Program-made: the position numbers and the translations under genes | Shown here: positions 24,059 through 53,317 of the stretch, in pieces | Position numbering within the stretch: position 1 is the first letter of the stretch | Layout: each line of letters begins with the position of its first letter | The notes under the pieces: model-generated | Seen by the model: the letters and a program-made list of their open reading frames with translations, nothing else | What the model was told of the DNA's origin: nothing | Database searches by the model: none | Source: Vulcanimicrobiota bacterium | GTDB taxonomy: Bacteria > Vulcanimicrobiota > Vulcanimicrobiia > Vulcanimicrobiales > Vulcanimicrobiaceae | Direction: 5' to 3' | Assembly (NCBI GenBank): GCA_963715435.1 | Contig: OY970243.1 | Span: forward strand, 1,716,320-1,780,319 | DNA length: 64,000 nucleotides

Positions 24059-24145
24059 GCCCAGATGGCGGAATTGGTAGACGCGCTGGTTTCAGGTACC
24101 AGTGGTGGCAACATCGTGGGGGTTCGAGTCCCTTTCTGGGCACCA
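24059..24145 (+). tRNA. tRNA-Leu (anticodon CAG), type II with long variable arm, CCA encoded
   Basis: Acceptor stem GCCCAGA/TCTGGGC. Anticodon arm CTGGT-TTCAGGT-ACCAG. T-loop GGTTCGAGTCC. Long variable arm and a 3' ACCA. Confidence 0.9.
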
Positions 24146-37094: not shown

Positions 37095-39329
37095 TCATGT
37101 GCCGGCGTCGGCGCCGGCGTGAAACACGTACTTCACGATGAGACGGTCGATAGTGGCGCCGGCGGCCGGACTGCCGTAATTGACGTAGAGCTCGTTGCCG
37201 CCGCGGAAGCGCTCGTGAAATGCAACGGCGAGGTTGTTGCCGATTTGCGTTGCAAAGCCGCCGTATCCGTTAATGTCGCGTAACGCGACCGTGAACGTGC
37301 TTTCGTCGCCGAGATTAACGCCCAGCGTCACGCTGCGCAGCCACTGCGAATCGAGCACCCCGGTCGTCATCGAGCGTTCGTACGTCCCGTCGTAGCTGAG
37401 CCCGAGCGTAACGATGCGGGCAACCGGGCGGGCGGTCGATGCGGTAAAGAGGTGCACGTAGTTACCGCCAAACGGTCCCCACGAATAGTTCACGTCGACC
37501 GGCGACGGCGTCCCGTCGCCATAACCGGCCGGAATCTGGTAAAGGTTGTACGGCTGCGTCACTCCGTCGCGATAGCACGGATAGCCGGTGAACGTCGACT
37601 GATATTCGATCGGACCGCTGCAGTTCGGCCCCGAGGGGATTCCATATTGCCGCAGCTGGCCGACGGCGACGCCTGCACCGTCGATCGAAAAGTTATTTTT
37701 GAACGTCACGTTGAGGAGCGACTGTGTGTCGGCCTGATGGACCGCTCCCGTTTCATCGATAAAGCGATCGACGCCCGTGAACCACGTCCAATTCTTGATT
37801 CCGGGCGTCGACCCGACGAAGTTGAAAAACGCCATCGGCCCACGAACGTCCGAGATCGGCGTGTAGCCGTCGATCGGGTTGTAGTTGGGCGCCGTATCCA
37901 TGTAACTGGTGAAAACCTCCCAGTTAGGTTTGTGGATGTCGACGCTCGCCTGCGAGAAGTCGGCGTGTCCCTGCGGGACCCAGCTGCCGTCTTCGAATGC
38001 GTGGTCGACGAACCACACGAGACCGTTATGGTAGTTGCGGCCTTGCGCGCCGAACTCCATCGTGTCGTCGTCGCCGGAGATGCTGTGGTGCGCGAGCACG
38101 CCGTCGCTCCAATAATAGAACGTGCCGTCGGGAAGCGCGTGCTCGTAACCATAGGCTTCGTCCGCAAACGTGTTGCCGGTGGTTTGGTCGAAGCCGCGAA
38201 ACGCGAGCACGCCGAAGCTCTGCTTGCCGAACGTCCCTTCCGTCTTTGCTCCCCAGTCGAACGGTCCAATATCGGGGGAATAGAAAATGAGGTTTGGCGC
38301 GGTCGTGATGCCCCCGGACGGCGTGCGCGAGCCCGACGACGCGTTGATGAAGTTTGCGCCCTGCGCGAAAAACGGACGATACTCGACGAGCTGTCGTTGG
38401 AACTCTTGCGGAACGATCGTTTGTTGATCGATCTCAACGTTGGAGAAATCGGGATTCGCGGTGCCGACGAAACTGATCGTCGGCGTCAGCGGGTAGCTCA
38501 CGTCCAAACCGTAGTTGCGCACCTTCATCGGCAAGAACTCGCCGTTGGCTTGCTGGAAGAGCTCGCGTTCGCCGCCGGCGCTTTCCAATCCGAAGATGTC
38601 CGCCCGTCCCTGGCCGCGGCCGCCGCCGGCGATCTTGATCCCAGTCGCCGACGGCCAAAAGCGCGTGTCGTTGAACTGCGGCCAGTTGCCGGATGGGGCG
38701 TCCTGCATGATGCCGCTGTATCCCCAGACGTAGTGCTCGCCGCGCGCCGCGACTTGCCGGACGAACTGAATGTGCCAGGTTTGTGACCCACTAATCTTGA
38801 GCGCCGAGAGGGGAATGACCATGACGGCCTTCCAGTTACCGTTCTCGACCTTGGCAGCGGCTAACCAGCGCGGACGGTAACGGACGTTCTCGTTCGCCTG
38901 CTCGTAGCGTACGCCGCGCGGGGTGGTCTCGAAGTAGTATGAGGTGCTTCCGGCGCCGCTCGTGTCGAGGCCTATCCCGACGAAATCGTCGATGCCGAAG
39001 CCGCTGTCGTTGGTTGCCTGCGTCGCCGTGATCGTCGTCCCCCGTTGGGCCGCCTTGAACGCGATGTAGAGACTCTTGTTGTCGTAGAGCACGTAAGCCG
39101 TGGTTTCGTGCGGGGCCGCCGACCGGGTCGTGACGTTCTCCCAGGGGCCGCTGCCGTTGGGAACCTCGCCGGCCGCCCACGCTGGGTCGCTCAGGGAGGG
39201 GTCGAGGGATAGGGGGTGAGGTGCGCGCGCCACCGGAAACGAAAACTTCTGCTCTACAACGGCGTATACGGGGGTAGCAGAGAACGCCACTCCCAGGAGC
39301 GTTGCGAGGACGAGACCGGCAGGTTTCAT
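37095..39329 (-). CDS. large secreted protein, CBM9/DOMON-like N-terminal domain (DUF5916-like)
   Basis: Signal peptide MKPAGLVLATLLGVAFSATPVYA. N-terminal LSDPAWAAG...YVLYDNKSLYIAFKA is typical of family-9 CBM-like modules. The remainder is beta-rich and rich in Tyr/Gly/Asn. The family call is tentative. Confidence 0.5.
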   Translation of the reverse strand: MKPAGLVLATLLGVAFSATPVYAVVEQKFSFPVARAPHPLSLDPSLSDPAWAAGEVPNGSGPWENVTTRSAAPHETTAYVLYDNKSLYIAFKAAQRGTTITATQATNDSGFGIDDFVGIGLDTSGAGSTSYYFETTPRGVRYEQANENVRYRPRWLAAAKVENGNWKAVMVIPLSALKISGSQTWHIQFVRQVAARGEHYVWGYSGIMQDAPSGNWPQFNDTRFWPSATGIKIAGGGRGQGRADIFGLESAGGERELFQQANGEFLPMKVRNYGLDVSYPLTPTISFVGTANPDFSNVEIDQQTIVPQEFQRQLVEYRPFFAQGANFINASSGSRTPSGGITTAPNLIFYSPDIGPFDWGAKTEGTFGKQSFGVLAFRGFDQTTGNTFADEAYGYEHALPDGTFYYWSDGVLAHHSISGDDDTMEFGAQGRNYHNGLVWFVDHAFEDGSWVPQGHADFSQASVDIHKPNWEVFTSYMDTAPNYNPIDGYTPISDVRGPMAFFNFVGSTPGIKNWTWFTGVDRFIDETGAVHQADTQSLLNVTFKNNFSIDGAGVAVGQLRQYGIPSGPNCSGPIEYQSTFTGYPCYRDGVTQPYNLYQIPAGYGDGTPSPVDVNYSWGPFGGNYVHLFTASTARPVARIVTLGLSYDGTYERSMTTGVLDSQWLRSVTLGVNLGDESTFTVALRDINGYGGFATQIGNNLAVAFHERFRGGNELYVNYGSPAAGATIDRLIVKYVFHAGADAGT

Positions 39330-39400
39330 CGGTATACCAGCGTCACTCGCATCTGAGCGCGACGTCCTCAGAAAGCCATCAAAGATTTATGGAGCGCCTG

Positions 39401-40813
39401 ATGAGCGTCTACGAATTCGGACCATTCTTGCTCGATTCCGAGCGCATGCTGCTGCTCGATCGCGGCGAACCCGTATCGCTCGGACCAAAAGTCGTCGAGA
39501 CGCTGCTCGCACTGATCGAGCATCCCGGCGAAGTGCTCACCAAGAGTGCGCTGCTCGATCGCATCTGGCCCGAAGGTTACGTCGACGAAGCGAATCTGGC
39601 GCAAAACGTTTACGTGCTGCGTAAGACCTTGCGCGCGCGCTGGGACACCGACGCAATCGAGACGATCCCGCGCCGAGGATACCGTTTCGCGCGCATCGTT
39701 GCTCGCCGTGAGAATTTGCCGCTGGCCGAGCCGGCTGCGGCTTTGCGGCGCCGCCCGGTCTGGGGCTTTGCTGCTGCCGCGGGCGCGGCATTCCTACTGG
39801 TGGCGATACTCCTAGCGGCCGCACTCGTCCCTCACGGCGCTTCGGCTCGCACCGCGCTCTCGCCCGAAGGCGCGCGGTTGTACGAAATCGGCCGCTATTA
39901 CTGGAACATGCGGACGCCCGACGGCATGCAAAAGAGCCTGCAGTATTTCGGGCGCGTAGTCGATACCGATCCGCACAACCCGCGCGGATACGCCGCGCTC
40001 GCCTCGGCGAACGCGCTGATGGCGGACTACGAATACGGCAGTGCCGCGCCAAAGACGTATTACGCGCGGGCGCAGGCCTACGCGCGTAAGGCGCTTGCAA
40101 TCGATTCCAGCTCCGGCGAAGCTTATGCCGTGCTCGGCATGATCGGGTCGATGAAATACTCGACGGACGAGGATATGGCAAACGCGCTCGATCAGCTCGA
40201 GCGCGCGATTGCGCTCGACCCCGGCAGCGGTCCGGCGCACGAATGGTACGGCGTCGCGCTGTTCGAGCGCGGCCGTTTCAACGACGCGTACTCGCAACTG
40301 CGTACTGCCGCCCAGCTCGATCCGCTTTCGGTCGCGACGTCGGCGTGGTTGAGCAGCGCCGCCTATCACGAGCATCGGTACGATGACGCGATTGCTTACG
40401 CGCGCGAAACGCTCGATCTCTCGCCGCAGCGGCACGACGTCTTGCAGACGATCGGCTTATCGTACGAGGCGCTGGGCGATCGCGAGCGCGCGCTTGGCGC
40501 GTATCGGAAGCTGGCGCGGTCGTGTTCCGACTGCCGCGCGCAAGCCGCTGCGTTGATGGCCGGCCTCTTCGCGCGCTCGAACCGCATTTCCGATGCGCGC
40601 GCCGAGCTTGCGATAGCGCAGGCGCATCCGAAGGAGGTCTCTCCCGATGACCTCGCAGTGGCCCTGGCCGCAATCGGCGAACGCGCGACCGCGCTGTCGC
40701 TGCTCAGCCGCACGCCGCATGCGTTCGTTCGAGCGGAAATGGCCACCGATCCGCGCTTTGCCGCGCTGCGCGCGGATCCGCGCGTTGCGCAGAAGCTCGG
40801 CGTCGGCTCTTAA
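39401..40813 (+). CDS. CadC/OmpR-type winged-helix transcriptional regulator with TM segment and TPR domain
   Basis: ATG at M34 of ORF 39302..40813, with GGAG 6 nt upstream. trans_reg_C motifs (YEFGPFLLD, LIEHPGEVLTK, RRGYRF), one TM helix, and C-terminal TPR repeats. Confidence 0.75.
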   Translation: MSVYEFGPFLLDSERMLLLDRGEPVSLGPKVVETLLALIEHPGEVLTKSALLDRIWPEGYVDEANLAQNVYVLRKTLRARWDTDAIETIPRRGYRFARIVARRENLPLAEPAAALRRRPVWGFAAAAGAAFLLVAILLAAALVPHGASARTALSPEGARLYEIGRYYWNMRTPDGMQKSLQYFGRVVDTDPHNPRGYAALASANALMADYEYGSAAPKTYYARAQAYARKALAIDSSSGEAYAVLGMIGSMKYSTDEDMANALDQLERAIALDPGSGPAHEWYGVALFERGRFNDAYSQLRTAAQLDPLSVATSAWLSSAAYHEHRYDDAIAYARETLDLSPQRHDVLQTIGLSYEALGDRERALGAYRKLARSCSDCRAQAAALMAGLFARSNRISDARAELAIAQAHPKEVSPDDLAVALAAIGERATALSLLSRTPHAFVRAEMATDPRFAALRADPRVAQKLGVGS

Positions 40814-42447
40814 GCCGTTCCCGTCGCGCGGGCGACGACACGCTCGACCTTTACGAGACGCGTCTTCGTCCAGCGGTCGTGCAGCAGCACGCGGCGCTTG
40901 AAGACGCTCAAAGGCACGATGAGCCACCATAAGAACCCGACGATGATGTAACGAGCGATCGTTCGTAAGATGCCCGGTTTGCGGAAGTCGACCGTAACGA
41001 CGCGCAATCCGGTGATCATCATGCCGAAGGTCTGACCGGCGAGCCCGACGAGCAGCGCAAGATAGACGGGAAGCCAGAAGCCGAAACCAAGCCGCCGCAG
41101 CGCCGCGTTGAGCGTATCGGCATTCAACGGCTCGTACGCTCCAAAAAGATGGAGCATCACGCCGCCGCTTTCACTGACCGCAAATGGACCGACGGTCAAC
41201 GGTGTGGCAGTCGGCGCCGGGGACGCCGTTGGAGAGGGCTGGGCGGTTGGTGCCGACTTTGCGGCGGTAACCGTGCCTTTTCCGTTACGATCTTTGCCGT
41301 TGACGTGTATCGAACCGCCCGGAATATTGATGTCCACGTGTCCCGGCGAGACGTCGGCAACGTCGGAATCGCCGGCGTTGCCGAGCACGCGTACCGGAGC
41401 GACGCTTCCTCCGAACGACGTGATCACGGCGGCTACGACTACCGCATCGATGAGATACGCCGCAGCGCGTCGCCACCAGCCGGCGCAGTCGCGCTCGCCG
41501 ACGGTTGTGGTTCCGGGTGCGGCGACCGCCGGCGGCTCCTCGCCGCGCTCGCGCGCAAACCACGCGCGGGCCGATTCGTATGCGGGTGTCGACATGAACG
41601 CGCGCAGCGACGCGATACGCGTGGTCGCGTAGGGTTCGCTTCCCAGCCACACCCCCCAGCGGAAGATCGTATCCGATTCGATCTCGACCTGCTGCTGCGC
41701 GAAGACGTCGAAATCCACTTTACGCGCAAACTCGTGAAACGCGCTCACGCCCATCGCCCGGATCGCTGCATCGATCGATCCGCAGCAAAGTAAGCCGACC
41801 TTGTCGCACGTCGTCGTGCAGCGCCGCAGCCAGCCGCCGAAGATCAGGGCGACGATCGGGTTCTCGTTGCCGTTGACGCTGAGCAGTGAAAGAAACCGTG
41901 TATGTCCGGCAGCGATGTGTCCGAGCTCGCGGCCGATTGCAAACGCCAATTCGTCGTCTTTGAATACTTCGATCCAATGGCTCGACAGTACGAGCGAATA
42001 CGGTTCGCCGAAACCGAGAGCGGCAACGGGCACGAAGTTATCTTCGCGCACGAAGACCAGCGGCATCGGAATCTCAAGCGCTGCGCATGCGTTCTTGACG
42101 ATGGAGAATACGCGCGGATACTGCGCTTCGTGCACGCGAACGCTCGACCCGAGCAAACGCCCGCGCGCCAAGGTGACGTAGACCATCGCTACGACGATAA
42201 ACAGCGCTACTTGCGACGCACCGATCGATTCGTGCAGCACGTACCCGATTAAAAGTGCGGCTGGTAGCGCTAAGATCGCGGTCCACCAAAAGGCTATCCG
42301 CTCGTACGGATCGCGTAAGGAAAATGGACCTTCGAAGAGAGGGATGCCCACGGGTGGGGTTTGGTTGGCTCTGGCTGCGGCACCCGCCGTTCGGCGAGTC
42401 GCGGCCCCGCTATCCCTCGGGACGCGCGCGTTTTTGCATCCGGGCAA
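40810..42447 (-). CDS. M48-like peptidase domain (HExxH replaced by RELGH) fused to RDD domain
   Basis: AFAIGRELGHIAAGH aligns to the M48 HELGH motif with Arg (CGC) at the first His position. C-terminal RDD-type membrane domain (WWRRAAAYLIDAVV). Start is uncertain: ATG 42447 or GTG 42351. Confidence 0.65.
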   Translation of the reverse strand: MPGCKNARVPRDSGAATRRTAGAAARANQTPPVGIPLFEGPFSLRDPYERIAFWWTAILALPAALLIGYVLHESIGASQVALFIVVAMVYVTLARGRLLGSSVRVHEAQYPRVFSIVKNACAALEIPMPLVFVREDNFVPVAALGFGEPYSLVLSSHWIEVFKDDELAFAIGRELGHIAAGHTRFLSLLSVNGNENPIVALIFGGWLRRCTTTCDKVGLLCCGSIDAAIRAMGVSAFHEFARKVDFDVFAQQQVEIESDTIFRWGVWLGSEPYATTRIASLRAFMSTPAYESARAWFARERGEEPPAVAAPGTTTVGERDCAGWWRRAAAYLIDAVVVAAVITSFGGSVAPVRVLGNAGDSDVADVSPGHVDINIPGGSIHVNGKDRNGKGTVTAAKSAPTAQPSPTASPAPTATPLTVGPFAVSESGGVMLHLFGAYEPLNADTLNAALRRLGFGFWLPVYLALLVGLAGQTFGMMITGLRVVTVDFRKPGILRTIARYIIVGFLWWLIVPLSVFKRRVLLHDRWTKTRLVKVERVVARATGTA

Positions 42448-42589: not shown

Positions 42590-42636
42590 TTGACCGGGGC
42601 GTATGCATGCATTATTGTACTAGTGTACTAGTTCAA
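42590..42636 (+). promoter_or_regulatory. sigma70-like promoter (TTGACC-17-TATTGT) overlapped by a 22-bp near-palindromic operator
   Basis: TTGACC at 42590-42595 and TATTGT at 42613-42618. ttgtactagtgtactagttcaa (42615-42636) is self-complementary at 18/22 positions and contains a tandem GTACTAGT. Confidence 0.45.
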
Positions 42637-42673
42637 TAAGAGATTGGACTAGGCGTCCCGAAAGGATACCACT

Positions 42674-42793
42674 ATGATCCGGTTCACGACCAACCGCCCC
42701 GACCCCGAAATGGCCCGCGAGGCCCGCACCCCCGTTCGTCTGCCCGAGCAGATGGCGTCCGGTCTCTTCCAAGGCTGGGGCCCGAAGTTCTAA
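42674..42793 (+). CDS. untracked 39-aa ORF (candidate small peptide 'B'), first gene of the GntR/ABC operon
   Basis: Hand translation gives MIRFTTNRPDPEMAREARTPVRLPEQMASGLFQGWGPKF. AAAGGA lies 7 nt upstream of the ATG. 34 of 39 third positions are G/C by hand count. The stop is 15 nt before the gntR ATG. Confidence 0.5.
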   Translation: MIRFTTNRPDPEMAREARTPVRLPEQMASGLFQGWGPKF

Positions 42794-42808
42794 GGTACCG
42801 CAGCTAAG

Positions 42809-43215
42809 ATGCCGGCCGTCCTCACGGTCGATCCGCGCAGTGGAGTTCCAATCTACCTGCAGATCATCGAGCAGATCAAACGATCCGTCGCTCTGGGGAT
42901 CTTGCAAGCGGGCGAACAGCTCCCTACCGTCAAGCAGTTAGCGTTGGATCTTACCGTCAACCCGAACACCGTTGCGCGAGCCTATCGCGATCTCGAACGC
43001 GACAGCGTCATCGAGACATCCCCCGGAAGGGGATCGTTCGTCCGCGGCAACGGTGTAGCGTCTTCGGCGAAAGCCGCCGCGAATGACATCGCACGCGACG
43101 CGATCGACGCGGCCTTACGCGAAGCCAAGTCGGTCGGACTCTCCCGCAGCGACCTGCGCGAACTCATCGATGCCGCCGTCAACCGGTGGTTCCCGGAGGA
43201 GCAACAGCAGCTTCC

Positions 43216-43219
<4 letters not shown>
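42809..43219 (+). CDS. GntR-family transcriptional regulator, YtrA subfamily
   Basis: 136 aa. PIYLQIIEQIKRSV...LPTVKQLALDLTVNPNTVARAYRDLE forms the winged HTH, followed by a short C-terminal helical domain. Confidence 0.85.
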
Positions 43220-44084
<865 letters not shown>

Positions 44085-44088
<4 letters not shown>

Positions 44089-45149
44089 GTTACGTCGAGT
44101 GGCTGCGCGTTCGCGGCTGTTTAAAGTGGACGGCGATCGTGCTGGTCGTATGCGTGGCATTCGTTCTCTTCGCGCGTTTCACGTTTCTCGAGATCCGTCC
44201 GAACCAGCACGGCTTCTCCGGCATCTTTATCGGCAGCCAAGATCTGGCGGACTTCGAGCGCGGCTCCAACCAGACGCAAACCAAGCTTCGCGACGGGACG
44301 TTCCGGACCGTTATCGACAACGCCGTGACCGGCACGCGCATTACGATCGACGATCACGGCTACTGGGGCAAGCACGTCGAGATTTTCGAAAAGAAGCCGC
44401 CCGCCGGCGTCCACCCGACGAAGATCGGCTTCGCCGACATTCACGCGCAGCGTCTCACGGTTCCCGGCGGCAGTCTGGTGAAGATCGACACGGGCGCGCT
44501 CGTTCCCGAAGACTTGGACTACTATTTTATTATGGCGGCGATCGTCGCGTTGATCGTAGCCACGATTTTGGGGGCTCCGTTCGCGCGCGAGAACGAGGGA
44601 CACCTCGAACTTGCCCTCACCAAGCCGATCTCGCGCATCAATCTCGCACTGCAAACGATAGCGAGCGACTTCGCGGGTATCGTCGCGGCGTGGGTGATGA
44701 CCGTAATATTCCTTATCATCGGTCATACGATATTCGAAGCACCGAACTATACCTACGGTCCGACCGACACCGTCGTGCTTGTCGTCGGTCTGCTCGGCGC
44801 ATTCTCGTGGTACGCGCTGCTCAACGCTTCAACGGCATCGATGAAGCGCGCTTACGGCGGAGTACTCGGCACGGCATGGCCGGTCGCGATCGGGCTGAGC
44901 GGCATCGCTCACGCCCCGTTGGGAGACTCGCCGCTCGCCGATTTCATTCGTTGGGTCGGCACGACGCTGTCGTGGCTGTTTCCGATCACCTATCTGCACT
45001 TTGCGTCCATCTCCGGAATCGCATCGCGAGAGCATAGCGCGCTTACGACGTCTCCGCTCCCGCCTGAAGCCGTCATCGTTATTCTGGCCGTTCTCGCTCT
45101 CGTTTACGGCGCGGCCGCCATCTACCAGTGGCGGCGCGTGGAGGCTTAA
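44085..45149 (+). CDS. ABC-2-like permease, paralog 1
   Basis: ATGA overlap with the ATPase gene. N-terminal TM, a ~130-aa external loop, then five TM helices. Paralogous to 45309..46337. Confidence 0.6.
44094..44119 (+). repeat. 26-nt exact repeat, copy 1 (5' end of permease paralog 1)
   Basis: gtcgagtggctgcgcgttcgcggctg is identical to 45318..45343. Confidence 0.9.
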
Positions 45150-45155
45150 ACCGTC

Positions 45156-45308
45156 ATGGAGATCTTAGGAACCAACTTCACCCTTTCGCTCGGCGCTTGG
45201 AGGCTCCGTTTCGTGCTGGCGATTGAAGACACCGAGGCACAGCCTGTGCCGCGAGCGCATGTGCCGCATCGCATGCGCGTCGTTCCCGAAGACGAGTACG
45301 TCCGCTAA
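45156..45308 (+). CDS. 50-aa inter-paralog ORF, possibly a relic of a duplicated ABC ATPase 3' end
   Basis: MEILGTNFTLSLGAWRLRFVLAIEDTEAQPVPRAHVPHRMRVVPEDEYVR, with its stop TAA abutting the next ATG. Its tail ...MRVVPEDEYV resembles the ATPase tail ...VRVVDLNLEDIFLY, and the 10-mer tgcgcgtcgt is shared. Confidence 0.25.
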   Translation: MEILGTNFTLSLGAWRLRFVLAIEDTEAQPVPRAHVPHRMRVVPEDEYVR

Positions 45309-46337
45309 ATGGGCTATGTCGAGTGGCTGCGCGTTCGCGGCTGCCTGAAGTGGGTCGCGATCGTGCTCGGCGCACTCTTTCTCATCGGGGTCATCCTGCG
45401 CGTCGCGCTTGTGGGTCGCCAAGACTACACGAGTTGGGCTGTTAATCTCAAATCCGATCCCGGCTCGAAAGTGACGGAGACGACGCTGCCGAACGGAACG
45501 CGGCGCACGGCGATCGAGGACCCCGCCAAGCAGTTGCGCGTCATCGTATTCGACCGCGGCTGGCAAGGCAAGCGCATCGAGATTTACGATTACTCCGAGC
45601 ACGGCTCCAACGACTTGAAACACGTCGGGGTGGTGATGGGTTCGGTCAACGTTAATCGCTTGCCGTCGGGGCACGGAACGTTCACCGTCATCGACACCAA
45701 CGGCGAGACCGACTTCATCAGCTACGTGGTCGGCGCCGCATTTGCCGCTTTCATCGTCGCGACGGTGCTCGGTGCGCCGTTCGCACGCGAGGGCGACGGG
45801 CACTTAGAGATCGCGCTCACCAAGCCGGTCCCGCGCTCGCGCTATAGCATGGAAGCGTTGGGGATCGATGCGCTGGGTATCGTCGCGGCCTTCTTCACGA
45901 CCATCGTTTTCGCGATCGCCGTCCACGCCATTTTCGAAATACCGCACATCGTCTTCACCGCGAGCGATGCATTGGCGCTGATGGTTGCAATCCTGGCTCC
46001 GATAGCGTGGTATGCGATGTTATCGGCTGCTACGGCTTCGTTGCGGCGCGGCTACGGCGCGGTACTCGGCTTCGCGTGGCCGGTCGCAGGCGTACTGCTG
46101 GCGCTGGGTTACGCACAACCCGACGGAAACGCCATTCTAGCGATCGTTCACAACATCGCCTGGGTGTTCGATCTTTTTAACCCTCTCGCGCACATCAGTC
46201 TGCATCACGAGGACATCCAAATCGGCGGTCCGGCGGTCTTCGGCATTTCATACGAAAATCAGATCGCCGTGCTGGCCATCCTGACAATCCTGTACGGCGC
46301 CCTGTCGATCGTGCAGTGGCGCCGCATCCAAGCATAG
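45309..46337 (+). CDS. ABC-2-like permease, paralog 2
   Basis: Same topology as 44085..45149. N-terminus MGYVEWLRVRGCLKW compares with MSYVEWLRVRGCLKW in paralog 1. Conserved E(L/I)ALTKP and STASxxRxYG blocks. Confidence 0.6.
   Translation: MGYVEWLRVRGCLKWVAIVLGALFLIGVILRVALVGRQDYTSWAVNLKSDPGSKVTETTLPNGTRRTAIEDPAKQLRVIVFDRGWQGKRIEIYDYSEHGSNDLKHVGVVMGSVNVNRLPSGHGTFTVIDTNGETDFISYVVGAAFAAFIVATVLGAPFAREGDGHLEIALTKPVPRSRYSMEALGIDALGIVAAFFTTIVFAIAVHAIFEIPHIVFTASDALALMVAILAPIAWYAMLSAATASLRRGYGAVLGFAWPVAGVLLALGYAQPDGNAILAIVHNIAWVFDLFNPLAHISLHHEDIQIGGPAVFGISYENQIAVLAILTILYGALSIVQWRRIQA
45318..45343 (+). repeat. 26-nt exact repeat, copy 2 (5' end of permease paralog 2)
   Basis: Identical to 44094..44119. 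Confidence 0.9.
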
Positions 46338-46438
46338 TCCTAAAGTCCCGCGCAGCAAAAGATAGGTACTTTCCCCAGTACCGGCCTTGACGGCTACCGG
46401 GTAGCATAAGACTGGGCCGAAAAGGATTTATCTTTCCG

Positions 46439-46732
46439 ATGAGCAGCACGAACGAACGCTTCTACGTCCTGGACGAGGGATATAGGCTAATATTGGCGCC
46501 GCCGCCGGCGCCAGACGATCCTATGAACGAGTTGTATGAAGCGACGACCGCGGCGGACGCCCTGCCGCCCGAGATCGATTACGCCGTTAGGAACTTGACG
46601 AGGGGTTGGGACCGCGATAGTGCACCGAAAGAAGCGTCGATGATGGTGAGCGGCATGTGGCTTTCGGTCGCGCCGCTGCAGGGGCCGGTCGGGCCGCACT
46701 TCGCGATCCGCGTAGAACGCGCAGTCGCTTAA
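46439..46732 (+). CDS. hypothetical 97-aa protein immediately upstream of TfuA
   Basis: ORF with high third-position GC. No recognisable family. Pro-rich segment APPPAPDDP. Confidence 0.5.
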   Translation: MSSTNERFYVLDEGYRLILAPPPAPDDPMNELYEATTAADALPPEIDYAVRNLTRGWDRDSAPKEASMMVSGMWLSVAPLQGPVGPHFAIRVERAVA

Positions 46733-46777
46733 CACAGCGCTGCAGGCTTGCATTTGCGGCTCGCAAAGTTGCCGCAC

Positions 46778-47410
46778 ATGAGCGCCTGCTCGCTCTGCGT
46801 GTTCTGCGGCCCTTCGTTGCCGCCTGAAGATCGCGTGGTGTCGCCGAGCGTCGTTTACGTGCCGCCCGCGAGTCGCGGAGATGTGGCTCGTGCTGCAGAA
46901 CGCTTCGACGCGTTGCTCATTATCGACGGCGTTTTCCATCACGATCTGGCACCGACGCCGCGGGAAGTGTACGATGCACTCGTGCGCGCTCGCGTTTTCG
47001 GAGCGTCCAGCATGGGTGCGCTACGTGCGGCCGAGTGCGCAGCGTACGGCGCGGTTCCGCTCGGCATAATCGCCCGTTGGTATCTGCGCGAGACGATCGA
47101 CGGCGACGATGAGGTCGCCGTACTGGTCGACCCGCAGACGCAGCGGACGCTCACGGTGCCCAGCGTCAACGTCCGGTACGTTGCGGCGCTGGCAGTTCGG
47201 CGCGGCTTGATGGATCGTACGTCGGCGAGTGAGTGGGTAAGCAGCGCGCGCGACATTTTTTACATGGATCGAACCTGGGAGAGTGCGATCGAACGCGCAC
47301 CGCTCAAAGTACGCAAAGCGTTGGGCCTCATCGCATGTAAAGAAGGCGACCTCAAACGCTGGGACGCGCGCTTCGCACTTCGTTCCGTACGAAGGCGTTT
47401 AGCCGCATGA
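46778..47410 (+). CDS. TfuA-like protein
   Basis: ATG at M11 of ORF 46748..47410. CVFCGPSL..., PPASRGDV, IIDGVF and GASSMGALRAAE are TfuA-domain hallmarks. Confidence 0.8.
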   Translation: MSACSLCVFCGPSLPPEDRVVSPSVVYVPPASRGDVARAAERFDALLIIDGVFHHDLAPTPREVYDALVRARVFGASSMGALRAAECAAYGAVPLGIIARWYLRETIDGDDEVAVLVDPQTQRTLTVPSVNVRYVAALAVRRGLMDRTSASEWVSSARDIFYMDRTWESAIERAPLKVRKALGLIACKEGDLKRWDARFALRSVRRRLAA

Positions 47411-48675
47411 CTGCGTTGCAGTTGCCGTCGTCCGAGCTTAAAGCGCCCGGTTCGTACGACCGCAGCGTTTCCGTGGAGAAAACGCTCGCCGTCGTACCAG
47501 AGCTTCGCCGGCGTTTCGGTATCACTCGCCTCGCCGACACGACTCGGCTGGACCGGCCGGATATTCCCACCTTCTCGGCCGTCGTTCCGCATTCGGATCT
47601 GCTGAGCGTATTCAACGGCAAAGGTGCGACGCGTGACGCTGCGCTCGTGAGCGCCGTGATGGAAGCTGTGGAACGGCAAGTGATGGGGGCGCCCGCCGTT
47701 GCAACGCACCGTCGCCGGGTCCGCGACGTGTGCCGCGTTCTCGATCTCGACGCGCTGGGACTGTTGCCGCAAGCGCGGGATCTCGAAGCGCAATGCGCGT
47801 GGGGCACGGATCTGCTTTCCGGCGACGACGTACCGGTGCCGATGCATGCGATCCAATGTCCTTGGTATGGCGAGCGGCTTTTTCCGATGTCGAGCAGCAA
47901 CGGCGTAGCCGCGGGAAATACGTTGACTGAAGCGCTCTATCACGGCCTGGCAGAGCTCGTCGAGCGTCACGTGTGGTCGCTGTTTTACGTGCGCTGCGAG
48001 CTAGTTCCGCGGTTTTACCGGCCTGATGCGATCGATAGCGCCGCGGCGGAGATGCTCTCTTTTCCGACCGGCGACGCCTATATCGATGGACTCGCTCGCC
48101 GCATCGAAGAAGCCGGACTGATACTGCGCGTGATGATCTTGCGGGAGGACGATCTTCCGGTCGTGGCGCTCGCAACGACGATCGAGCCCGGGTCGGACCC
48201 GCCGATGGCTCATCAAGGCTTGGGATGTTCGCTCTCGCCGGCGCACGCCGTCGGTCGCGCGATTACGGAATGCGTTCAGAGCCGTGTCGTCGACATTCAA
48301 GGAGCGCGGGACGATCTTTTGCGCCCCGACGATCCGTCGCGGGTAACCGGCGAACACACGCGGCGTCCGCGCTTATTGCCGAAGGATCGCTGGTTTTTGG
48401 ATCTCCCGGCGCGCGCGCTGATGCTGCACGAAATTTCCGATCGGAGCAGCCGCGATCTGGCCAAAGACCTTCGGCTCGTGCTCGAGCTGCTCGACGAGGC
48501 CGGCCTCGGGCCGATCGTAGCAATCCCCATCTCACCCGCCGATATTCCGGTTTCCGTCGTGCGCATCGTCGCGCTGCGCCTGGAAAATACGTTCAGCTCG
48601 GGCAGAATCGGCCGCCGTGGAACGGCACTCTTTAGTCCATTCCATCTCGTAAAGGAGAAGATGTCATGCCTATGA
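47407..48675 (+). CDS. YcaO-domain protein (TfuA-associated type)
   Basis: ATGA overlap with TfuA. Motifs GKGATRDAALVSAVMEAVER and SSSNGVAAGNTLTEALYHGLAELVERH match the YcaO ATP/Mg-binding core. Confidence 0.85.
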   Translation: MTALQLPSSELKAPGSYDRSVSVEKTLAVVPELRRRFGITRLADTTRLDRPDIPTFSAVVPHSDLLSVFNGKGATRDAALVSAVMEAVERQVMGAPAVATHRRRVRDVCRVLDLDALGLLPQARDLEAQCAWGTDLLSGDDVPVPMHAIQCPWYGERLFPMSSSNGVAAGNTLTEALYHGLAELVERHVWSLFYVRCELVPRFYRPDAIDSAAAEMLSFPTGDAYIDGLARRIEEAGLILRVMILREDDLPVVALATTIEPGSDPPMAHQGLGCSLSPAHAVGRAITECVQSRVVDIQGARDDLLRPDDPSRVTGEHTRRPRLLPKDRWFLDLPARALMLHEISDRSSRDLAKDLRLVLELLDEAGLGPIVAIPISPADIPVSVVRIVALRLENTFSSGRIGRRGTALFSPFHLVKEKMSCL

Positions 48676-48962
48676 CGCCACAGCAAATCAAGAACGTCGC
48701 CACCGGCTTCGTTCACATACTCGTCATGCATTCGGAAGTCTACGACGCATGGATTACCGTCGCTGAGACCGGAAACGCCGCGAGCATCGGAAAGTTTGTA
48801 CAAGACTGCATGTTTCTTCAGAGTGCGCCGACCGAAGACGAGATTGCAGCCATGGACCGTCATCTGGGAACGGCGATGCAGCAAGACGTGGCCACCTTCA
48901 GGCAGATGCGACCGGATGCTCCAGTGGTTCTCGCCATTTGCGGCGAGGAGCACGGCACCTAG
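48666..48962 (+). CDS. hypothetical 98-aa protein overlapping the YcaO stop
   Basis: AAGGAG lies 8 nt upstream of ATG 48666, and the ORF overlaps the ycaO end by 10 nt. Acidic, helical-looking sequence. No family recognised with confidence. Confidence 0.5.
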   Translation: MPMTPQQIKNVATGFVHILVMHSEVYDAWITVAETGNAASIGKFVQDCMFLQSAPTEDEIAAMDRHLGTAMQQDVATFRQMRPDAPVVLAICGEEHGT

Positions 48963-48965
48963 TTA

Positions 48966-51635
48966 TTAACCGGTAGCTTCACGGCGCACGTACCACGTTG
49001 CCAGCTGCGTACGCGACGAGACGCCGACCTTGTTGAAGAGATTTGAGATGTGAACCTCAACGGTGCGCTGGCTTAGAACCAGCGTATCCGCGATTTGCTG
49101 ATTGCTGTTTCCTGCCGCTACGAGAGATGCGACTTGAAGTTCCCGTGCCGTCGGTTTGACGAATGTATCATTTGCCGGCTTGGCTGCGGCTCCGAGCCAT
49201 TTGATTCCTAACGCCGCGAGACGCGTGCTTGCCGCGACATCGCTTTTACTTTGCATGGTGGCGGCAAGATCGGCGTAAACGTTCAGTCCGAGTTCCCGCG
49301 CGTGCGGTATTTCCGCGCTCAGGTCCGGCAGCTGACCCATAAGGCCGCGGGCGATGGCTTTGGCGAGACTATTGTGGATCGAATGCCAGGGTGTCTTCGG
49401 TGTCCACCATGGTTTCGACGCCAGAAGTGCAAGGGTCGCGTCATCGCGCAAGCGGTGCGCCAGGAGTACTATCGACAACGCCGGCATGTACACGTGAGGG
49501 TCGGCCGGTTTATCCAGTTGTGAAAGAAGATGCGATAGAACGGTTCGCGCCGTCTTTGGTTCCGATTCAGCCGTTGCGACCGCCCACCACGCTGCCAGCG
49601 GAACGTACCACCCTTCGCGGTGCCCTAAAAGAAACGCCGAAACATCGGCTTCGATGGGCTTCCGATAAGGCGAACCGATCTGCCGAAGGGCGGCAATGGC
49701 CGCCGCCACAGTAAAGAAGCGGCGTTTCGCAGTGGGGCGAACGGTAGTGCCGTCGACGATCCCCGCGATTCTCGCCTCGGCACGATCCCAGCTGCCCCCC
49801 AAAAAATCCGAAAGCGTTAGAAAATACTCGTCGGCAGGAGTCGGTTCGCTGTCGCCTCTCGCGCGGAAACGTTCCTGGATCAGCGGTTCGAGGACGCGGG
49901 TTCCATATTCCCAATGGCTCAAGATGAGTCGCGGTGCGTTGCGCTGGTCGCTCGTAATTCCGACACGGCCCATCAGCGTAGCTTCATCGGCGATCGCCAC
50001 GGCTTCGTCGATCAGGGTCGCGGCCGCCTCATGCCGCCCGTGCAGCGCCAGAACGAACGCTTTAAAATTGCGCATTCGAATTTTGACTTGAAACGGCAGC
50101 TCGCAGGGTAGCGCAAGCAGCTGCTTTTCGAGCGTATCGGCGAGCTCGAGATTCGCATTGCACGCCGCGAACCAAAATGCGGCCGACATCACGTGAGCGC
50201 GATCCTCATCGGTGGTCATGGTCGGCAGAAATCGCGCGTAGGTGGACTCGGCCGCCGACACCTGATCGCTAAAGCATTGGGCGATAATGAGTCGAGCGAT
50301 TGCCGGTCCCGGGATCCCCGTTCCGGCATCGCCGAGTACCCTTAGCCCGCGTTCGAGAACGGTAACCGCTTCCGAATCCCGATCCAGTGCGAAGAGTGCA
50401 TCTGCGTAATCGGGCAAAAACGTTCTCGCGACGTCGGCCGGCGGCTCGGCAAACGTCAGGGCGCGAGCAGATGCGCTAACGGTGAGACGCATCTGACCTG
50501 AGGCGGCTGCTTTTTTCGCGACACCCGCCAAAACGTTAAACGCCCCCGCCCGATCGCCGCACTCGGCCAATTGCGATGCCAGCGTTTGAAGATCTTCAAG
50601 CGTTGGCGAGTCGAGCCGCTGTAGCGCCGCTATGATCTTTCTCCGGTATGGAACAGGCACGGCAATCGTGTGCCGAATGCCCTCCGCTATGAGGGCGTGG
50701 TCGAACTCCACCCCGAGTTCGGTGATGCGGAGAAAGCGGCCGATCGCAGACCCTACCAACGCGTCGAGCGTCTGGGGTTCGGGCCACAGTTGTTCGAGTA
50801 ATCGATAACCTATGGGACCATCCATGAGCGAGCAGATCTGAAGAAACTCTCGCAGCTCCGGCGTGGCGGTTTGAACGTCACGCGCAATCGCACTCCGCCG
50901 GCTTGAGGCCACGTCGTCAATCGACGGTCGAGCGACCCTACCGATTGCTCTCGAGAGAGCGACGATATCGAGCGGATAGCCGCGCGCATGATTTACGACG
51001 GCATCGACGATTTCCGCGGGCGCATCAGCCATCAGGCGTCGCGCGACGGCCGTGGCGGACTCGCCGTCGAGGGGCTGTAACGGTATGTCGATCTCGGGAA
51101 CCGGCAAGACGCTTTCCATTTGTGGGCGCTTGGCAAAAAGTCCGACGATGGCGCGATCCGCTAACGTTGTCATTGTGTCGCGGATCAGTTGCAGTGAGTC
51201 GCGATCGGCCCATTGTGCGTCGTCCAGTGCGAGCAATACCGGCCGATCCAGCGTAACGCCCTCGAGGAGGCGCGCAAACGCTTGCGCCGCTGATTCGGGC
51301 TTCCCACTCTCGAGAAGGGCTTCGAGACCCGTAACGTAGCGTGCGCGTTCGTTACCGATTGCTTCAAGCGCGCTGCGTAAGAATTGTCGTACCACCGTTA
51401 AAGGTATCTGCGATTGAACCGCATAGCACGTTGCCCTCGCGACGATCCACTTATCCCGTTGGGCTGCGAGCGCGCCTGCGTGTAACAGCGTCGACTTGCC
51501 GATGCCGGCATCGCCCTCGATCCCGATGATGAGCGGAACGCCGTCTTTGCGCGAGCGCTCGAACCCGCGCGCGATACTTCCCAACTCTCGCGAACGGCCA
51601 GTCAGCTCTACCGCAGAATGCTCTTCTGCGTCCAT
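48966..51635 (-). CDS. LuxR-family regulator with N-terminal AAA (STAND/LAL-type) ATPase domain
   Basis: 889 aa. Walker A GDAGIGKST, a long helical/TPR-like middle region, and a C-terminal LuxR HTH (LTARELQVASLVAAGNSNQQIADTLVLSQRTVEVHISNLFNKVGV). Confidence 0.85.
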   Translation of the reverse strand: MDAEEHSAVELTGRSRELGSIARGFERSRKDGVPLIIGIEGDAGIGKSTLLHAGALAAQRDKWIVARATCYAVQSQIPLTVVRQFLRSALEAIGNERARYVTGLEALLESGKPESAAQAFARLLEGVTLDRPVLLALDDAQWADRDSLQLIRDTMTTLADRAIVGLFAKRPQMESVLPVPEIDIPLQPLDGESATAVARRLMADAPAEIVDAVVNHARGYPLDIVALSRAIGRVARPSIDDVASSRRSAIARDVQTATPELREFLQICSLMDGPIGYRLLEQLWPEPQTLDALVGSAIGRFLRITELGVEFDHALIAEGIRHTIAVPVPYRRKIIAALQRLDSPTLEDLQTLASQLAECGDRAGAFNVLAGVAKKAAASGQMRLTVSASARALTFAEPPADVARTFLPDYADALFALDRDSEAVTVLERGLRVLGDAGTGIPGPAIARLIIAQCFSDQVSAAESTYARFLPTMTTDEDRAHVMSAAFWFAACNANLELADTLEKQLLALPCELPFQVKIRMRNFKAFVLALHGRHEAAATLIDEAVAIADEATLMGRVGITSDQRNAPRLILSHWEYGTRVLEPLIQERFRARGDSEPTPADEYFLTLSDFLGGSWDRAEARIAGIVDGTTVRPTAKRRFFTVAAAIAALRQIGSPYRKPIEADVSAFLLGHREGWYVPLAAWWAVATAESEPKTARTVLSHLLSQLDKPADPHVYMPALSIVLLAHRLRDDATLALLASKPWWTPKTPWHSIHNSLAKAIARGLMGQLPDLSAEIPHARELGLNVYADLAATMQSKSDVAASTRLAALGIKWLGAAAKPANDTFVKPTARELQVASLVAAGNSNQQIADTLVLSQRTVEVHISNLFNKVGVSSRTQLATWYVRREATG

Positions 51636-51700: not shown

Positions 51701-53317
51701 ATGCGAAAGGCGCTTTGGCTGCTGGCCGGTTTACTGTTGCTCCCCGGTTGCGACGGCACGAATGCCAGGCTCGTCCACCTCGGTCAACCGGCGGCTGCGG
51801 GTCTATTGCGGATCGCGACCATGGCCGATCCGACGACGCTGAATCCCTATCTCACGACGAGCGATCTCGGTTACGATCTCGCTTCACTGACGTACTCGTA
51901 TCTCGTCGTTTCGGACGACCGGGGTCACCTTATCGGTGATCTTGCAACGGAAATTCCGACGAGGGCCAACGGCGGCATCTCCGCCGACGGCCTGACCTAC
52001 GTGTATCACCTGCGCCGCAACGTCCGCTGGCACGACGGCTTGTCCTTCACGGGCCGCGACGTCGCGGCTTCGTGGCGCGCTATCGTCGATCCCCAGCACC
52101 CCGTCGTCGAACGGGAAGGCTACGATCGGATCGCATCGATCGGTTTGCCGGATCCGTTCACGCTGGTCGTGCGTTTGCGCGAGCGCTATCCGCCGTTCGT
52201 CACGCGTTTCTTCGCACCGCTGCAGGACGGCGGGAAGCCCGTTCTGGCAGCGCACATCTTGAAACGCGTTCGCGATTTCGTTTCCGGTGAGTTGGCGACG
52301 AATCCCGTCGGGACCGGGCCGTTTCGGTTCGAATCTTGGGCGCGCGGCGATAGCATAAGGTTCGTGCGTAACCTCGCGTACTTCCGGGGGCGGCCGCGAG
52401 TGTCGAGAATCATCGTTCAACTGATCCCCGACGCTCAAACGGCGGCGCTCGCGCTGTCCACCGATAACGTGGACCTTATCGTCGAGGCGCAGCCGGCGCT
52501 GCTCGCACAGTATCGATCCGTACCTGGGGCAACCGTTAGAACCGTGCCCTTGAACGCGCAGGTTCAACTCCTCATCGATTGCGCGCGACCGTTCTTGCGA
52601 GATGCGGCGACGCGACGCGCCATTGCGTACGCAATACCGTATCCTGTGATACTCGGAAGCATTATGCACCGTTTATGGCCGCAAGGCAGCAACATGATAG
52701 CACCGACGGCTATTGGATACGAACCGCTTCCTGCGTATACGTTCGATCTAAAGAAAGCTGCGGCCGAACTCGATACGGCGGGCTGGCGCCCGGGCAGGGA
52801 CGGCATCCGTCAACGCGGCGGTAAACGCCTGGAAATAACGCTCGCCACGCTCGCCGGTGCTGCGACGTTCGAACGAATAGCGGTCGTGATGCAGACATCG
52901 CTTCGCCGGCTGGGCATCGATGCGACCATCAAGCCGTATGCATATCAAGTGCTCGATGCACCCAATGGGCCGATCCGCGGCGGGACGTACGATTTGTCTC
53001 TATTCGGCAGTTCGCTGAACTGGGATCCCGATGCCTACGACGAACTGGCGTGCGACCGCTGGTATCCGCGCGGCGCAAACTTGACGCGGTTCTGCAATAA
53101 AGAGATCGATATGCTGGAGCGAGCCGGTTTACGGACCGACGACGTCGCGTCCCGCACGGCGATTTATCGCAAGATCATGCGCATTTTATGGGCCGATTTG
53201 CCCTACGTTCCCATCAATGATGGACGGCGACTTGTCGTTACTTCGCGCCGTCTGCGCAACTACCGTCCGAACCCGACGGTAACGCCGTGGTGGAACGCGT
53301 GGCAGTGGGCAGTTTGA
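51701..53317 (+). CDS. ABC transporter substrate-binding lipoprotein, family 5 (peptide/nickel type)
   Basis: Lipobox LLLLPGC. SBP_bac_5 motifs (YHLRRNVRWHDG, GTGPFRFESW). Confidence 0.85.
   Translation: MRKALWLLAGLLLLPGCDGTNARLVHLGQPAAAGLLRIATMADPTTLNPYLTTSDLGYDLASLTYSYLVVSDDRGHLIGDLATEIPTRANGGISADGLTYVYHLRRNVRWHDGLSFTGRDVAASWRAIVDPQHPVVEREGYDRIASIGLPDPFTLVVRLRERYPPFVTRFFAPLQDGGKPVLAAHILKRVRDFVSGELATNPVGTGPFRFESWARGDSIRFVRNLAYFRGRPRVSRIIVQLIPDAQTAALALSTDNVDLIVEAQPALLAQYRSVPGATVRTVPLNAQVQLLIDCARPFLRDAATRRAIAYAIPYPVILGSIMHRLWPQGSNMIAPTAIGYEPLPAYTFDLKKAAAELDTAGWRPGRDGIRQRGGKRLEITLATLAGAATFERIAVVMQTSLRRLGIDATIKPYAYQVLDAPNGPIRGGTYDLSLFGSSLNWDPDAYDELACDRWYPRGANLTRFCNKEIDMLERAGLRTDDVASRTAIYRKIMRILWADLPYVPINDGRRLVVTSRRLRNYRPNPTVTPWWNAWQWAV

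Follow-up and report, generated by a model that had tools for sequence, protein, structure and literature searches.

Organization of the locus

The 64,000-nucleotide (nt) stretch of contig OY970243.1 analysed here (hereafter the window) carries a TfuA-YcaO enzyme pair of the thioamidation type, embedded in a compact operon of four genes on the forward strand. The first of these, B, is an open reading frame (ORF) of 97 amino acids (aa) seen in the ORF map and supported by homologues (46439-46732). It is followed by the genes for TfuA (46778-47410; 210 aa), the sulfur-delivery partner of YcaO, for YcaO itself (47407-48675; 422 aa), the ATP-dependent enzyme that activates backbone amides, and by a 98-aa ORF, A (48666-48962), which its family profile, structure model and pattern of co-occurrence lead us to predict as the gene of the precursor peptide. 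According to the model and the family alignment, A would encode a leader of approximately residues 1-86 (48666-48923), and the predicted core peptide VVLAICGEEHGT (48924-48959), delimited from the alignment and the model confidence, comes directly after a conserved RPDAP junction. On the reverse strand, the gene for an 889-aa LAL/MalT-like STAND regulator with an AAA_16-TPR-GerE/LuxR architecture (48966-51635) converges on A. Divergent from the regulator, on the forward strand, lies the gene for an SBP_bac_5 lipoprotein of the oligopeptide/metal-chelate type (51701-53317; Pfam E 1.2e-66).

All ORFs listed in the original prediction, which had been made from the letters of this region, are present where it placed them, with a single correction: the public annotation starts TfuA at the ATG at 46778 and not at the TTG at 46748. 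Both small ORFs, A and B, are annotated as genes in the public annotation of the source genome, like the remaining proteins of the locus. Their differences from the relative with 82% YcaO identity (L001) are biased to third codon positions (17/15/45 for A and 16/12/36 for B at positions one, two and three), and both were found with hidden Markov models (HMMs) in dozens of diverged loci. They are therefore not simply ORFs that arise by chance when a genome is GC-rich. Neither has a match in Pfam or NCBIfam, so that their earlier description as unassignable stands.

The TfuA-YcaO pair

The translational coupling proposed for the pair is real: the stop codon of TfuA and the start codon of YcaO overlap as ATGA at 47407-47410. 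HMM searches upheld both domain assignments (PF07812, E 3.2e-29; PF02624, E 1.8e-52). They also agree with the thioamidation type put forward earlier, as the best NCBIfam model for each protein concerns the thioamidation of McrA glycine. These models are methan_mark_1 for YcaO (TIGR03266; 199.4 bits, below the cut-off of 365) and the TfuA-related McrA-glycine thioamidation model for TfuA (NF033432; 148 bits, below the cut-off of 235.2). The azoline/TOMM YcaO model (TIGR03604) likewise scores YcaO below its cut-off (68 against 219 bits). No azoline partner, that is neither an E1-like/Ocin-ThiF protein nor a dehydrogenase, was detected in the Pfam-annotated neighbourhoods of the window and loci L001-L008, and among those ORFs from 37 to 55 kb that were checked there is no E1/Ocin-ThiF protein, dehydrogenase or lanthionine enzyme, as had been remarked before.

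The YcaO motifs SAVMEAVER (S-x3-E-x2-E-R) and ELVERH (E-x2-E-R), which we take to be ATP-binding motifs as in the E. coli YcaO structures, are invariant in 20 homologues of 48-82% identity. At E <= 1e-20 YcaO has 225 homologues; the matches from named organisms, a minority, all belong to Eremiobacterota, and they assign the source organism to this phylum as well (Baltobacteraceae/Vulcanimicrobiota). Many homologues are single fused chains of 560-657 aa with an N-terminal TfuA and a C-terminal YcaO moiety, which provides independent evidence that both enzymes act together. The pair is best assigned to a TfuA-dependent branch of YcaO proteins that is not the McrA system.

The 98-aa ORF A and its family

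The first 10 nt of A are shared with the end of YcaO, and an AAGGAG Shine-Dalgarno sequence stands 8 nt ahead of its ATG. A word-based search returned 11 close relatives, and a profile built from close relatives retrieved 34 representatives, nearly all 94-103 aa long, from 1.84 billion representative proteins. The N-terminal ~80 residues have the consensus MT..Q...AAGF.HAL...W...D..A.G...Q...GL...PT..DL.AM..H....L. In the AlphaFold model, obtained with a 33-sequence alignment, residues 5-81 form a five-helix bundle with a predicted local distance difference test (pLDDT) score of ~90, and the tail is disordered from residue 82 (pLDDT <65; <50 for the last eight residues). There is no signal peptide. 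The few invariant or near-invariant columns of the family alignment (positions 3-55) all lie within the leader, and the tail of 12-18 residues varies between classes.

Four members searched against Pfam and NCBIfam gave no match at E <= 10. The leader also has no sequence match in the PDB, and the best result of a Foldseek fold search had an E-value of 2.4. Membership of the 98-aa leader in the Nif11/NHLP families was ruled out on these results. A founds an unannotated, precursor-like family that is small and confined to this gene context. It had been proposed that one of the neighbouring small ORFs is the substrate of the pair; comparison across loci points to the 98-aa ORF that lies downstream of YcaO, and A is very probably the peptide substrate of TfuA-YcaO. 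The thioamide would be placed in VVLAICGEEHGT or at the AP-X junction.

The tails of the family differ by class, and three classes are prominent. One has the pattern AP(R/H/Q/K)(H/T)VG, four hydrophobic residues and MQQ(S); another, the Cys class, has (H)VVGxxC(L/I)(A/T)E(D/E) and includes the APVVLAICGEEHGT of the window; the last is marked by FNG/YNG. Cys is present in 33 of 101 tails and most cores lack it. Many cores contain no Cys, Ser or Thr in their hydrophobic stretch (for example APHHVGFMAMMQQ), which favours a modification that needs no side-chain nucleophile and argues against azoline chemistry. Entropy calculated over 98 sequences, many of which share the HVG...MQQ class, did not discriminate leader from tail; the variability of the tail is claimed from the differences between classes and from the lack of conserved tail columns in the diverse alignment.

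Repeated cores, two to six per protein, occur in some members of the family, P0168 among them. P0185 contains four copies of RTPRHVGDIALT(Q/K)HTDDVE, P0169 two leaders and at least six PxHVG units, the member at 9399-9890 of L036 five DAPSHVGxGFVVQ units, and those of L013 and L040 two core units each. In L095 (7204-8288) three A genes stand in tandem. The A profile also matched P0173 (E 8.6e-07), a 474-aa protein of six near-identical ~57-aa repeats (KCDKCKTSIGYVTAGCQVISTNTYQASVEGFQKHLGVDVESGLALIRQAVKPANKAVI) that looks unrelated; it may be a tandem multi-copy precursor of another lineage or a chance match.

Conservation of the locus

A scan of genome contigs with an alignment of YcaO returned 80 loci, and the same scan with a single YcaO sequence returned none. 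Gene content was established from the six-frame ORFs: A and B were sought with HMMs, the other proteins of the window and of neighbouring genes with phmmer. Co-occurrence was counted among non-redundant loci with at least 4 kb of flanking sequence on each side of YcaO, binned by identity to the YcaO of the window: at least 45% (36 loci, from Eremiobacterota, called related loci below), 40-45% (7 loci) and below 40% (16 loci, from Acidobacteriota, Actinomycetota, Verrucomicrobiota and methanogens).

A is present in all 36 related loci and in five of the seven intermediate ones, and the STAND/LuxR regulator shows exactly the same counts. B was found in 32 of the 36 related loci, an S-adenosylmethionine (SAM) methyltransferase in 26, a pair of AhpC/TSA genes in 22 and an OPT transporter in 20, each in 0/7 of the intermediate loci; SBP_bac_5 occurs in 8/36 and 2/7. 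OPT and SBP_bac_5 never share a locus in any of the three bins, and one or the other is present in 28 of the related loci. The ABC permease of the window was recovered in L001 only (1/36; 0/7). All of these genes are absent from the 16 loci below 40% identity. The original prediction had tied small ORFs, regulators and an exporter to the pair: the small ORFs and the LuxR regulator are indeed co-conserved with it, but the exporter is not. In the reverse direction, a narrow A profile run against metagenome contigs detected 11 loci, all of which have the arrangement A>LAL<; YcaO, methyltransferase, B and OPT are there too wherever the contig is long enough.

The methyltransferase gene lies between YcaO and A in the 26 related loci that carry it. 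The AhpC/TSA-redoxin genes stand in tandem directly upstream of TfuA-YcaO (e.g. L005 6271-7299), as is the case in most loci in which TfuA and YcaO are fused. Neither the methyltransferase nor the AhpC/TSA pair was found anywhere in the 64-kb window, which thus contains a reduced version of the module.

Some loci have more complex structures. L004 (1-14790) and L035 (800-13200) carry two YcaO genes and/or two A-regulator sets that share one TfuA and one B. In L007 and L008 a 64-aa remnant of a second YcaO lies on the opposite strand between TfuA and YcaO.

The TfuA-YcaO loci of Acidobacteriota and Verrucomicrobiota (33-36% YcaO identity) have another conserved ORF of 85-105 aa directly upstream of YcaO (L068-L071, L074, L076, L078, L079, L082 and L088, at ~9660-10000; in L069 at 3596-3901). 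Its consensus is MT.QEML..LGLS..EFRDLL.KF..FL.SLN, and its tails are variable and often Cys-rich, e.g. PPVHGICIMECCGRG. This ORF has no Pfam or NCBIfam match, and homology with family A was ruled out (hhalign probability 6.8%). It probably represents a second undescribed family of long-leader precursors for thioamidation.

The regulator and its pairing with A

The regulator consists of an N-terminal AAA_16 NTPase (residues 10-159, E 2.7e-19), a central TPR/sensor region (TPR_14, 409-436) and a C-terminal GerE helix-turn-helix (829-881, E 1.1e-17), the architecture of LAL/MalT-like proteins. It converges on A at 48960-48968, with a spacer of 3 nt. A lies within 150 nt of the regulator in 56 of 66 cases, 54 convergent and two co-directional, and in the convergent pairs the 3' ends mostly overlap, by up to 28 nt (e.g. 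L005 11146-11159). Where this adjacency fails, the A gene is an additional copy in a multi-A locus or lies at a contig end; only L055 has no regulator.

In the rearranged loci L035, L038, L042, L048, L049, L052 and L061, A keeps its regulator and YcaO is found on the far side. The two-set loci L004 and L035 contain two A-regulator pairs, and regulator paralogues cluster by the class of A and not by genome. Compared with their counterparts in L004, the YcaO of the window has 61% identity, its B 48%, its regulator 44% and its A 41%. The adjacency, the sorting by class and the duplication of A-regulator pairs make the regulator more than a generic cluster-situated activator; judged by its genomic arrangement, it is an obligate and dedicated partner of the putative precursor gene. 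The two genes leave no space for a terminator and must have overlapping transcripts; this points to antisense control or transcriptional interference.

Protein B and importers

B has 26 close homologues and the invariant segments YVLDEGY.L.LAPPP.PDDP and PLQGP.GPH. Its AlphaFold model (pLDDT 81) has the topology b-b-a-a-b-b-b. Foldseek matches to the Roadblock/LC7/LAMTOR and PAS-GAF folds (E >= 0.035, TM 0.4-0.55) were too weak and an assignment of B to a fold family was dropped. The 97-aa ORF had also been considered as a substrate candidate, a view that the data do not favour: it encodes a conserved folded alpha/beta protein instead. In the window B heads the biosynthetic operon; in most loci it is situated past the regulator, directly upstream of OPT or downstream of SBP_bac_5 (LAL< B> OPT>; SBP5> B>). 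B could be a conserved accessory protein acting as a peptide chaperone, a partner of the sensor or an immunity protein.

The SBP_bac_5 gene, on which the original prediction did not remark, is a recurrent associate of the module. Its product has an N-terminal lipobox (LLLLPGC) and is a probable uptake component. We take OPT and SBP_bac_5 proteins, by their families, to be uptake components for oligopeptides or metal chelates.

The GntR/ABC operon and other neighbouring genes

A gap of 100 nt (46338-46438), in which conserved TTGAC and ACCGG elements are present, separates B from an upstream operon, also on the forward strand, that has the layout of the YtrA type: a short GntR regulator, an ATPase, two paralogous permeases and a palindromic putative operator. 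Inspection of the sequence revealed a sigma-70-like promoter laid over the palindrome (42590-42639), with the promoter-like TTGACC-17-TATTGT at 42590-42618 and the palindrome TTATTGTACTAGT/ACTAGTTCAATAA at 42612-42639, overlapping the -10-like hexamer; both are kept in the close relative L002. The genes that follow are a 39-aa ORF (42674-42793), the GntR regulator of 136 aa (42809-43219; Pfam/NCBIfam domain scan), the ABC ATPase (43186 or 43216 to 44088; DrrA/PmtA type in the domain scan, under NCBIfam cut-offs), permease 1 (44085-45149), a 50-aa ORF without family match (45156-45308) and permease 2 (45309-46337). The two permeases are paralogues and have no Pfam match.

This operon adjoins the module only in the window and in L001-L003. 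The inclusion of the GntR/ABC/permease genes and the 39-aa ORF in a conserved unit, as originally envisaged, had to be abandoned: the operon has its own promoter and operator, and L001 alone of the 36 related loci shares it in near-identical synteny. Of the unit once proposed to unite the exporter with both regulators, the LuxR/LAL regulator stays, being present in 36/36 loci, and the GntR regulator and the exporter fall away, as among these loci they occur in L001 only. On this comparative evidence the operon is a separate, self-regulated, lineage-specific unit. Its adjacency is the ground for thinking that it may serve as an exporter or immunity system of this lineage.

The 39-aa ORF has 89% nucleotide identity to L002, against 74-78% for the neighbouring genes, and shows a weak codon-position pattern (5/2/6). 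Instead of being a protein gene, it could represent a conserved leader peptide or a regulatory RNA. The 50-aa ORF (MEILGTNFTLSLGAWRLRF...) is conserved in L001 with third-position-biased divergence (9/3/21) and is probably a real small gene.

Farther upstream, the domain scan identified a Trans_reg_C + TPR regulator (39302-40813, forward strand) and, on the reverse strand, a membrane protein (40810-42447) in which M48 peptidase and RDD domains are combined. The latter is the sole protease-like gene near the cluster in the window; in L001 four extra genes stand between it and the cluster, and it is missing from the other loci. An Rfam scan found no RNA element in the locus, and the lone match across the 64-kb window was one tRNA gene (24059-24142).

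Interpretation of the locus

We consider it likely that the locus is the local version of an Eremiobacterota-specific module for the production of a ribosomal, backbone-thioamidated peptide. The domain identities, the coupling and fusion of the enzyme genes, the co-occurrence of the components and the leader/tail architecture of A are what the analysis shows. A would be the precursor, its ~80-residue helical domain the leader and the disordered tail RPDAP-VVLAICGEEHGT the core. Bacterial thioamidation needs TfuA in addition to YcaO (Santos-Aberturas et al. 2019, PMC6511847). Here, YcaO would use ATP to activate a backbone amide of the tail and TfuA would supply the sulfide: after attack by the sulfide delivered by TfuA, YcaO would phosphorylate the amide oxygen, converting C=O into C=S; PMC13063428 gives a summary of YcaO chemistry in general. 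Two candidates for the modified site are the conserved AP-X junction, for which the Pro-Arg thioamide of thiovarsolin offers an analogy, and the V-G of HVG. Since no protease gene is conserved in the module, host peptidases would presumably release the core or cores, as put forward for thiovarsolins. The converging STAND/LuxR regulator would act as the dedicated partner of A, with B and the SBP_bac_5 or OPT uptake component as further conserved members whose roles can only be suggested. The GntR/ABC operon would stand apart, its exporter perhaps serving the peptide in this lineage alone.

Several points weigh against this interpretation. Thioamide, modified position and cleavage are predictions throughout, and neither YcaO nor TfuA reaches the curated NCBIfam cut-off of the sole thioamidation equivalogs. 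Neither a protease nor an exporter is conserved with the module, and B and the importers have no assigned role. A lies within 150 nt of YcaO in just 21 of 66 cases, its tightest adjacency being to the regulator. Finally, the tail of A is strongly conserved, not variable, within the window's own clade, where P83, A85, P86, V88, C92, G93, E94, H96 and G97 are invariant.

The fate of the peptide allows a more tentative proposal, possible although well short of even odds. After release, it would be re-imported through OPT or SBP_bac_5 as a signal, or as a metal carrier using thioamide, His and Cys ligands, and would be sensed by the regulator, perhaps together with B, instead of acting as an antibiotic. 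This idea derives from the A-regulator adjacency (56/66), the duplication of the pairs as units, the presence of an importer in 28 of 36 related loci and the lack of a conserved exporter or protease. Much of the same evidence would suit a purely regulatory device, in which A is a small cytoplasmic protein whose tail, possibly thioamidated, serves as ligand, co-regulator or anti-activator of the STAND/LuxR protein. Adjacency to the regulator is the most conserved feature of A, with frequent 3' overlaps; the pairs duplicate and diverge as units; the leader is confidently folded in the model; a signal peptide is absent from A, as are a conserved protease and exporter from the module; and from the window to L004 YcaO (61%) has diverged more slowly than the regulator (44%) and A (41%). 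However, the members with repeats and spacers imply the excision of several peptides and the conserved OPT or SBP_bac_5 implies an extracellular stage, while ordinary precursors are compatible with long folded leaders. We regard such an intracellular role as unlikely.

The chances are smaller again that YcaO performs another reaction, such as formation of a thiazoline at Cys92 or of an amidine. YcaO enzymes do catalyse several reactions and also act on proteins (PMC13063428), and a Cys is present in the core of the window as in a third of the tails (33/101). Against such chemistry, TfuA is coupled or fused throughout the clade, most cores lack Cys, many have no Ser or Thr in the hydrophobic stretch either, and the Pfam-annotated neighbourhoods contain no E1/Ocin-ThiF protein or dehydrogenase. 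Slighter still is the prospect that the pair thioamidates a housekeeping protein encoded elsewhere, in the manner of McrA or uL16, and that the small ORFs are unrelated to it. YcaO can act on proteins (PMC13063428), McrA-type thioamidation supplies the best NCBIfam models and the module is widespread within one phylum, but the scores are far under the cut-offs. A accompanies the pair in 36/36 related loci and in none of the distant ones, and is found only in this context; its leader/core architecture and multi-core variants also speak for a dedicated substrate, as do the multiple YcaO paralogues of L004, each with its own A and regulator. Just as improbable is a role of B, in place of A, as the substrate, with the thioamide located, for instance, in the invariant loop PLQGPVGPH, on the model of McrA thioglycine. 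The loop is rich in Gly and Pro, and B is directly upstream of TfuA in the window and co-conserved in 32/36 loci, yet it folds as a compact domain and lacks a variable tail. It mostly lies past the regulator, co-oriented with OPT or SBP_bac_5 and not with YcaO, and it is missing from the 40-45% loci, which keep A and the regulator.

A thioamidated peptide made from A remains the explanation that we prefer. Peat and oligotrophic soils are rich in Eremiobacterota, of which very few are in culture, and few families of thioamide-containing ribosomal peptides have been characterised. With A, an orphan TfuA-YcaO pair gains a concrete candidate substrate that can be tested, and a new precursor family emerges that combines a folded leader of ~80 residues with natural multi-core variants. 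Even on a plain reading, the four-gene set 46439-48962 would be a compact system for studying TfuA-dependent thioamidation. If the peptide is a re-imported signal or metal carrier, this would be a new role for thioamidated peptides and a handle on the physiology of Eremiobacterota, and the module would be a receptor-paired uptake or signalling circuit typical of a whole, largely uncultivated phylum.

Relation to known systems

The closest parallel is the thiovarsolin system (var) of Streptomyces varsoviensis, with the same minimal set of precursor, YcaO and TfuA, whose products are linear thioamidated peptides; varA, varY and varT alone suffice for the formation of thioamidated peptides (PMC6511847). 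The var precursor has one to five core repeats and the cluster has no protease; members of family A also have repeated cores. The var thioamide follows the Pro of a repeated APR motif; as a likeness of motifs, this recalls the AP(R/H/Q/K) junction of family A. In contrast to var, the module described here belongs to another phylum, and the YcaO of the window is at most 36% identical to the actinobacterial YcaO proteins recovered. It has a folded helical leader of ~80 residues, the STAND/LuxR pairing, B and OPT or SBP_bac_5, and is without the heme-oxygenase-like, ATP-grasp and amidinotransferase genes. A regular-expression search for VarA-like repeat precursors next to the actinobacterial YcaO genes of L073-L087 gave only spurious GC-rich ORFs.

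The YcaO/TfuA proteins of McrA thioglycine formation in methanogens (TIGR03266/NF033432) are the best curated models for the pair, and the expected reaction is the same. The host, however, is a bacterium and not expected to contain MCR, the pair adjoins a small putative precursor gene of its own, and the scores are far below the cut-offs. Backbone thioamidation also depends on YcaO in the E. coli YcaO/uL16 system (PMC13063428), but there it is independent of TfuA and acts on a folded housekeeping substrate with no small ORF nearby, whereas the present locus has both a TfuA partner and a dedicated small ORF. In thioamitides and thioamidated thiopeptides (thioviridamide, thiopeptin) a TfuA-YcaO pair likewise acts on a ribosomal peptide; unlike those clusters, the region from 37 to 55 kb and loci L001-L008 contain no dehydratase/phosphotransferase-lyase, cyclase, pyridine synthase, AviMeCys-type or other class-defining tailoring enzyme.

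The Nif11 and NHLP families of long-leader precursors were reportedly described by Haft and colleagues in 2010. Family A resembles them in its leader of ~80 residues, far above the typical length, in its short variable core and in the presence of several paralogous precursors per locus, but its lack of Pfam, PDB sequence or fold matches marks it as a separate family. The gene organisation also recalls the RRNPP and Rgg-SHP circuits, in which a propeptide gene neighbours that of a TPR receptor located in the cytoplasm and an importer takes up oligopeptides. In both, the peptide gene abuts that of a TPR-containing transcription factor, convergently or co-directionally, an uptake component is co-conserved and the pairs duplicate as units. 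The likeness is in gene organisation only: the regulator is an AAA_16-TPR-GerE STAND protein and not a Rap, Rgg, NprR, PlcR or PrgX protein, and A has a long leader and a predicted dedicated modification by YcaO/TfuA.

In the library that was searched, no paper connects Eremiobacterota with YcaO, TfuA or thioamides, nor was there one linking TfuA/YcaO with LuxR/OPT circuits, and a global survey of TfuA mining from 2021 does not mention Eremiobacterota. Clusters for TfuA-YcaO-thioamidated peptides that are made on the ribosome and modified after translation are a known kind, and automated tools would be likely to label the pair 'TfuA-related'. The A family, its obligate pairing with a STAND/LuxR regulator, protein B, the association with importers and the distribution across Eremiobacterota are new.

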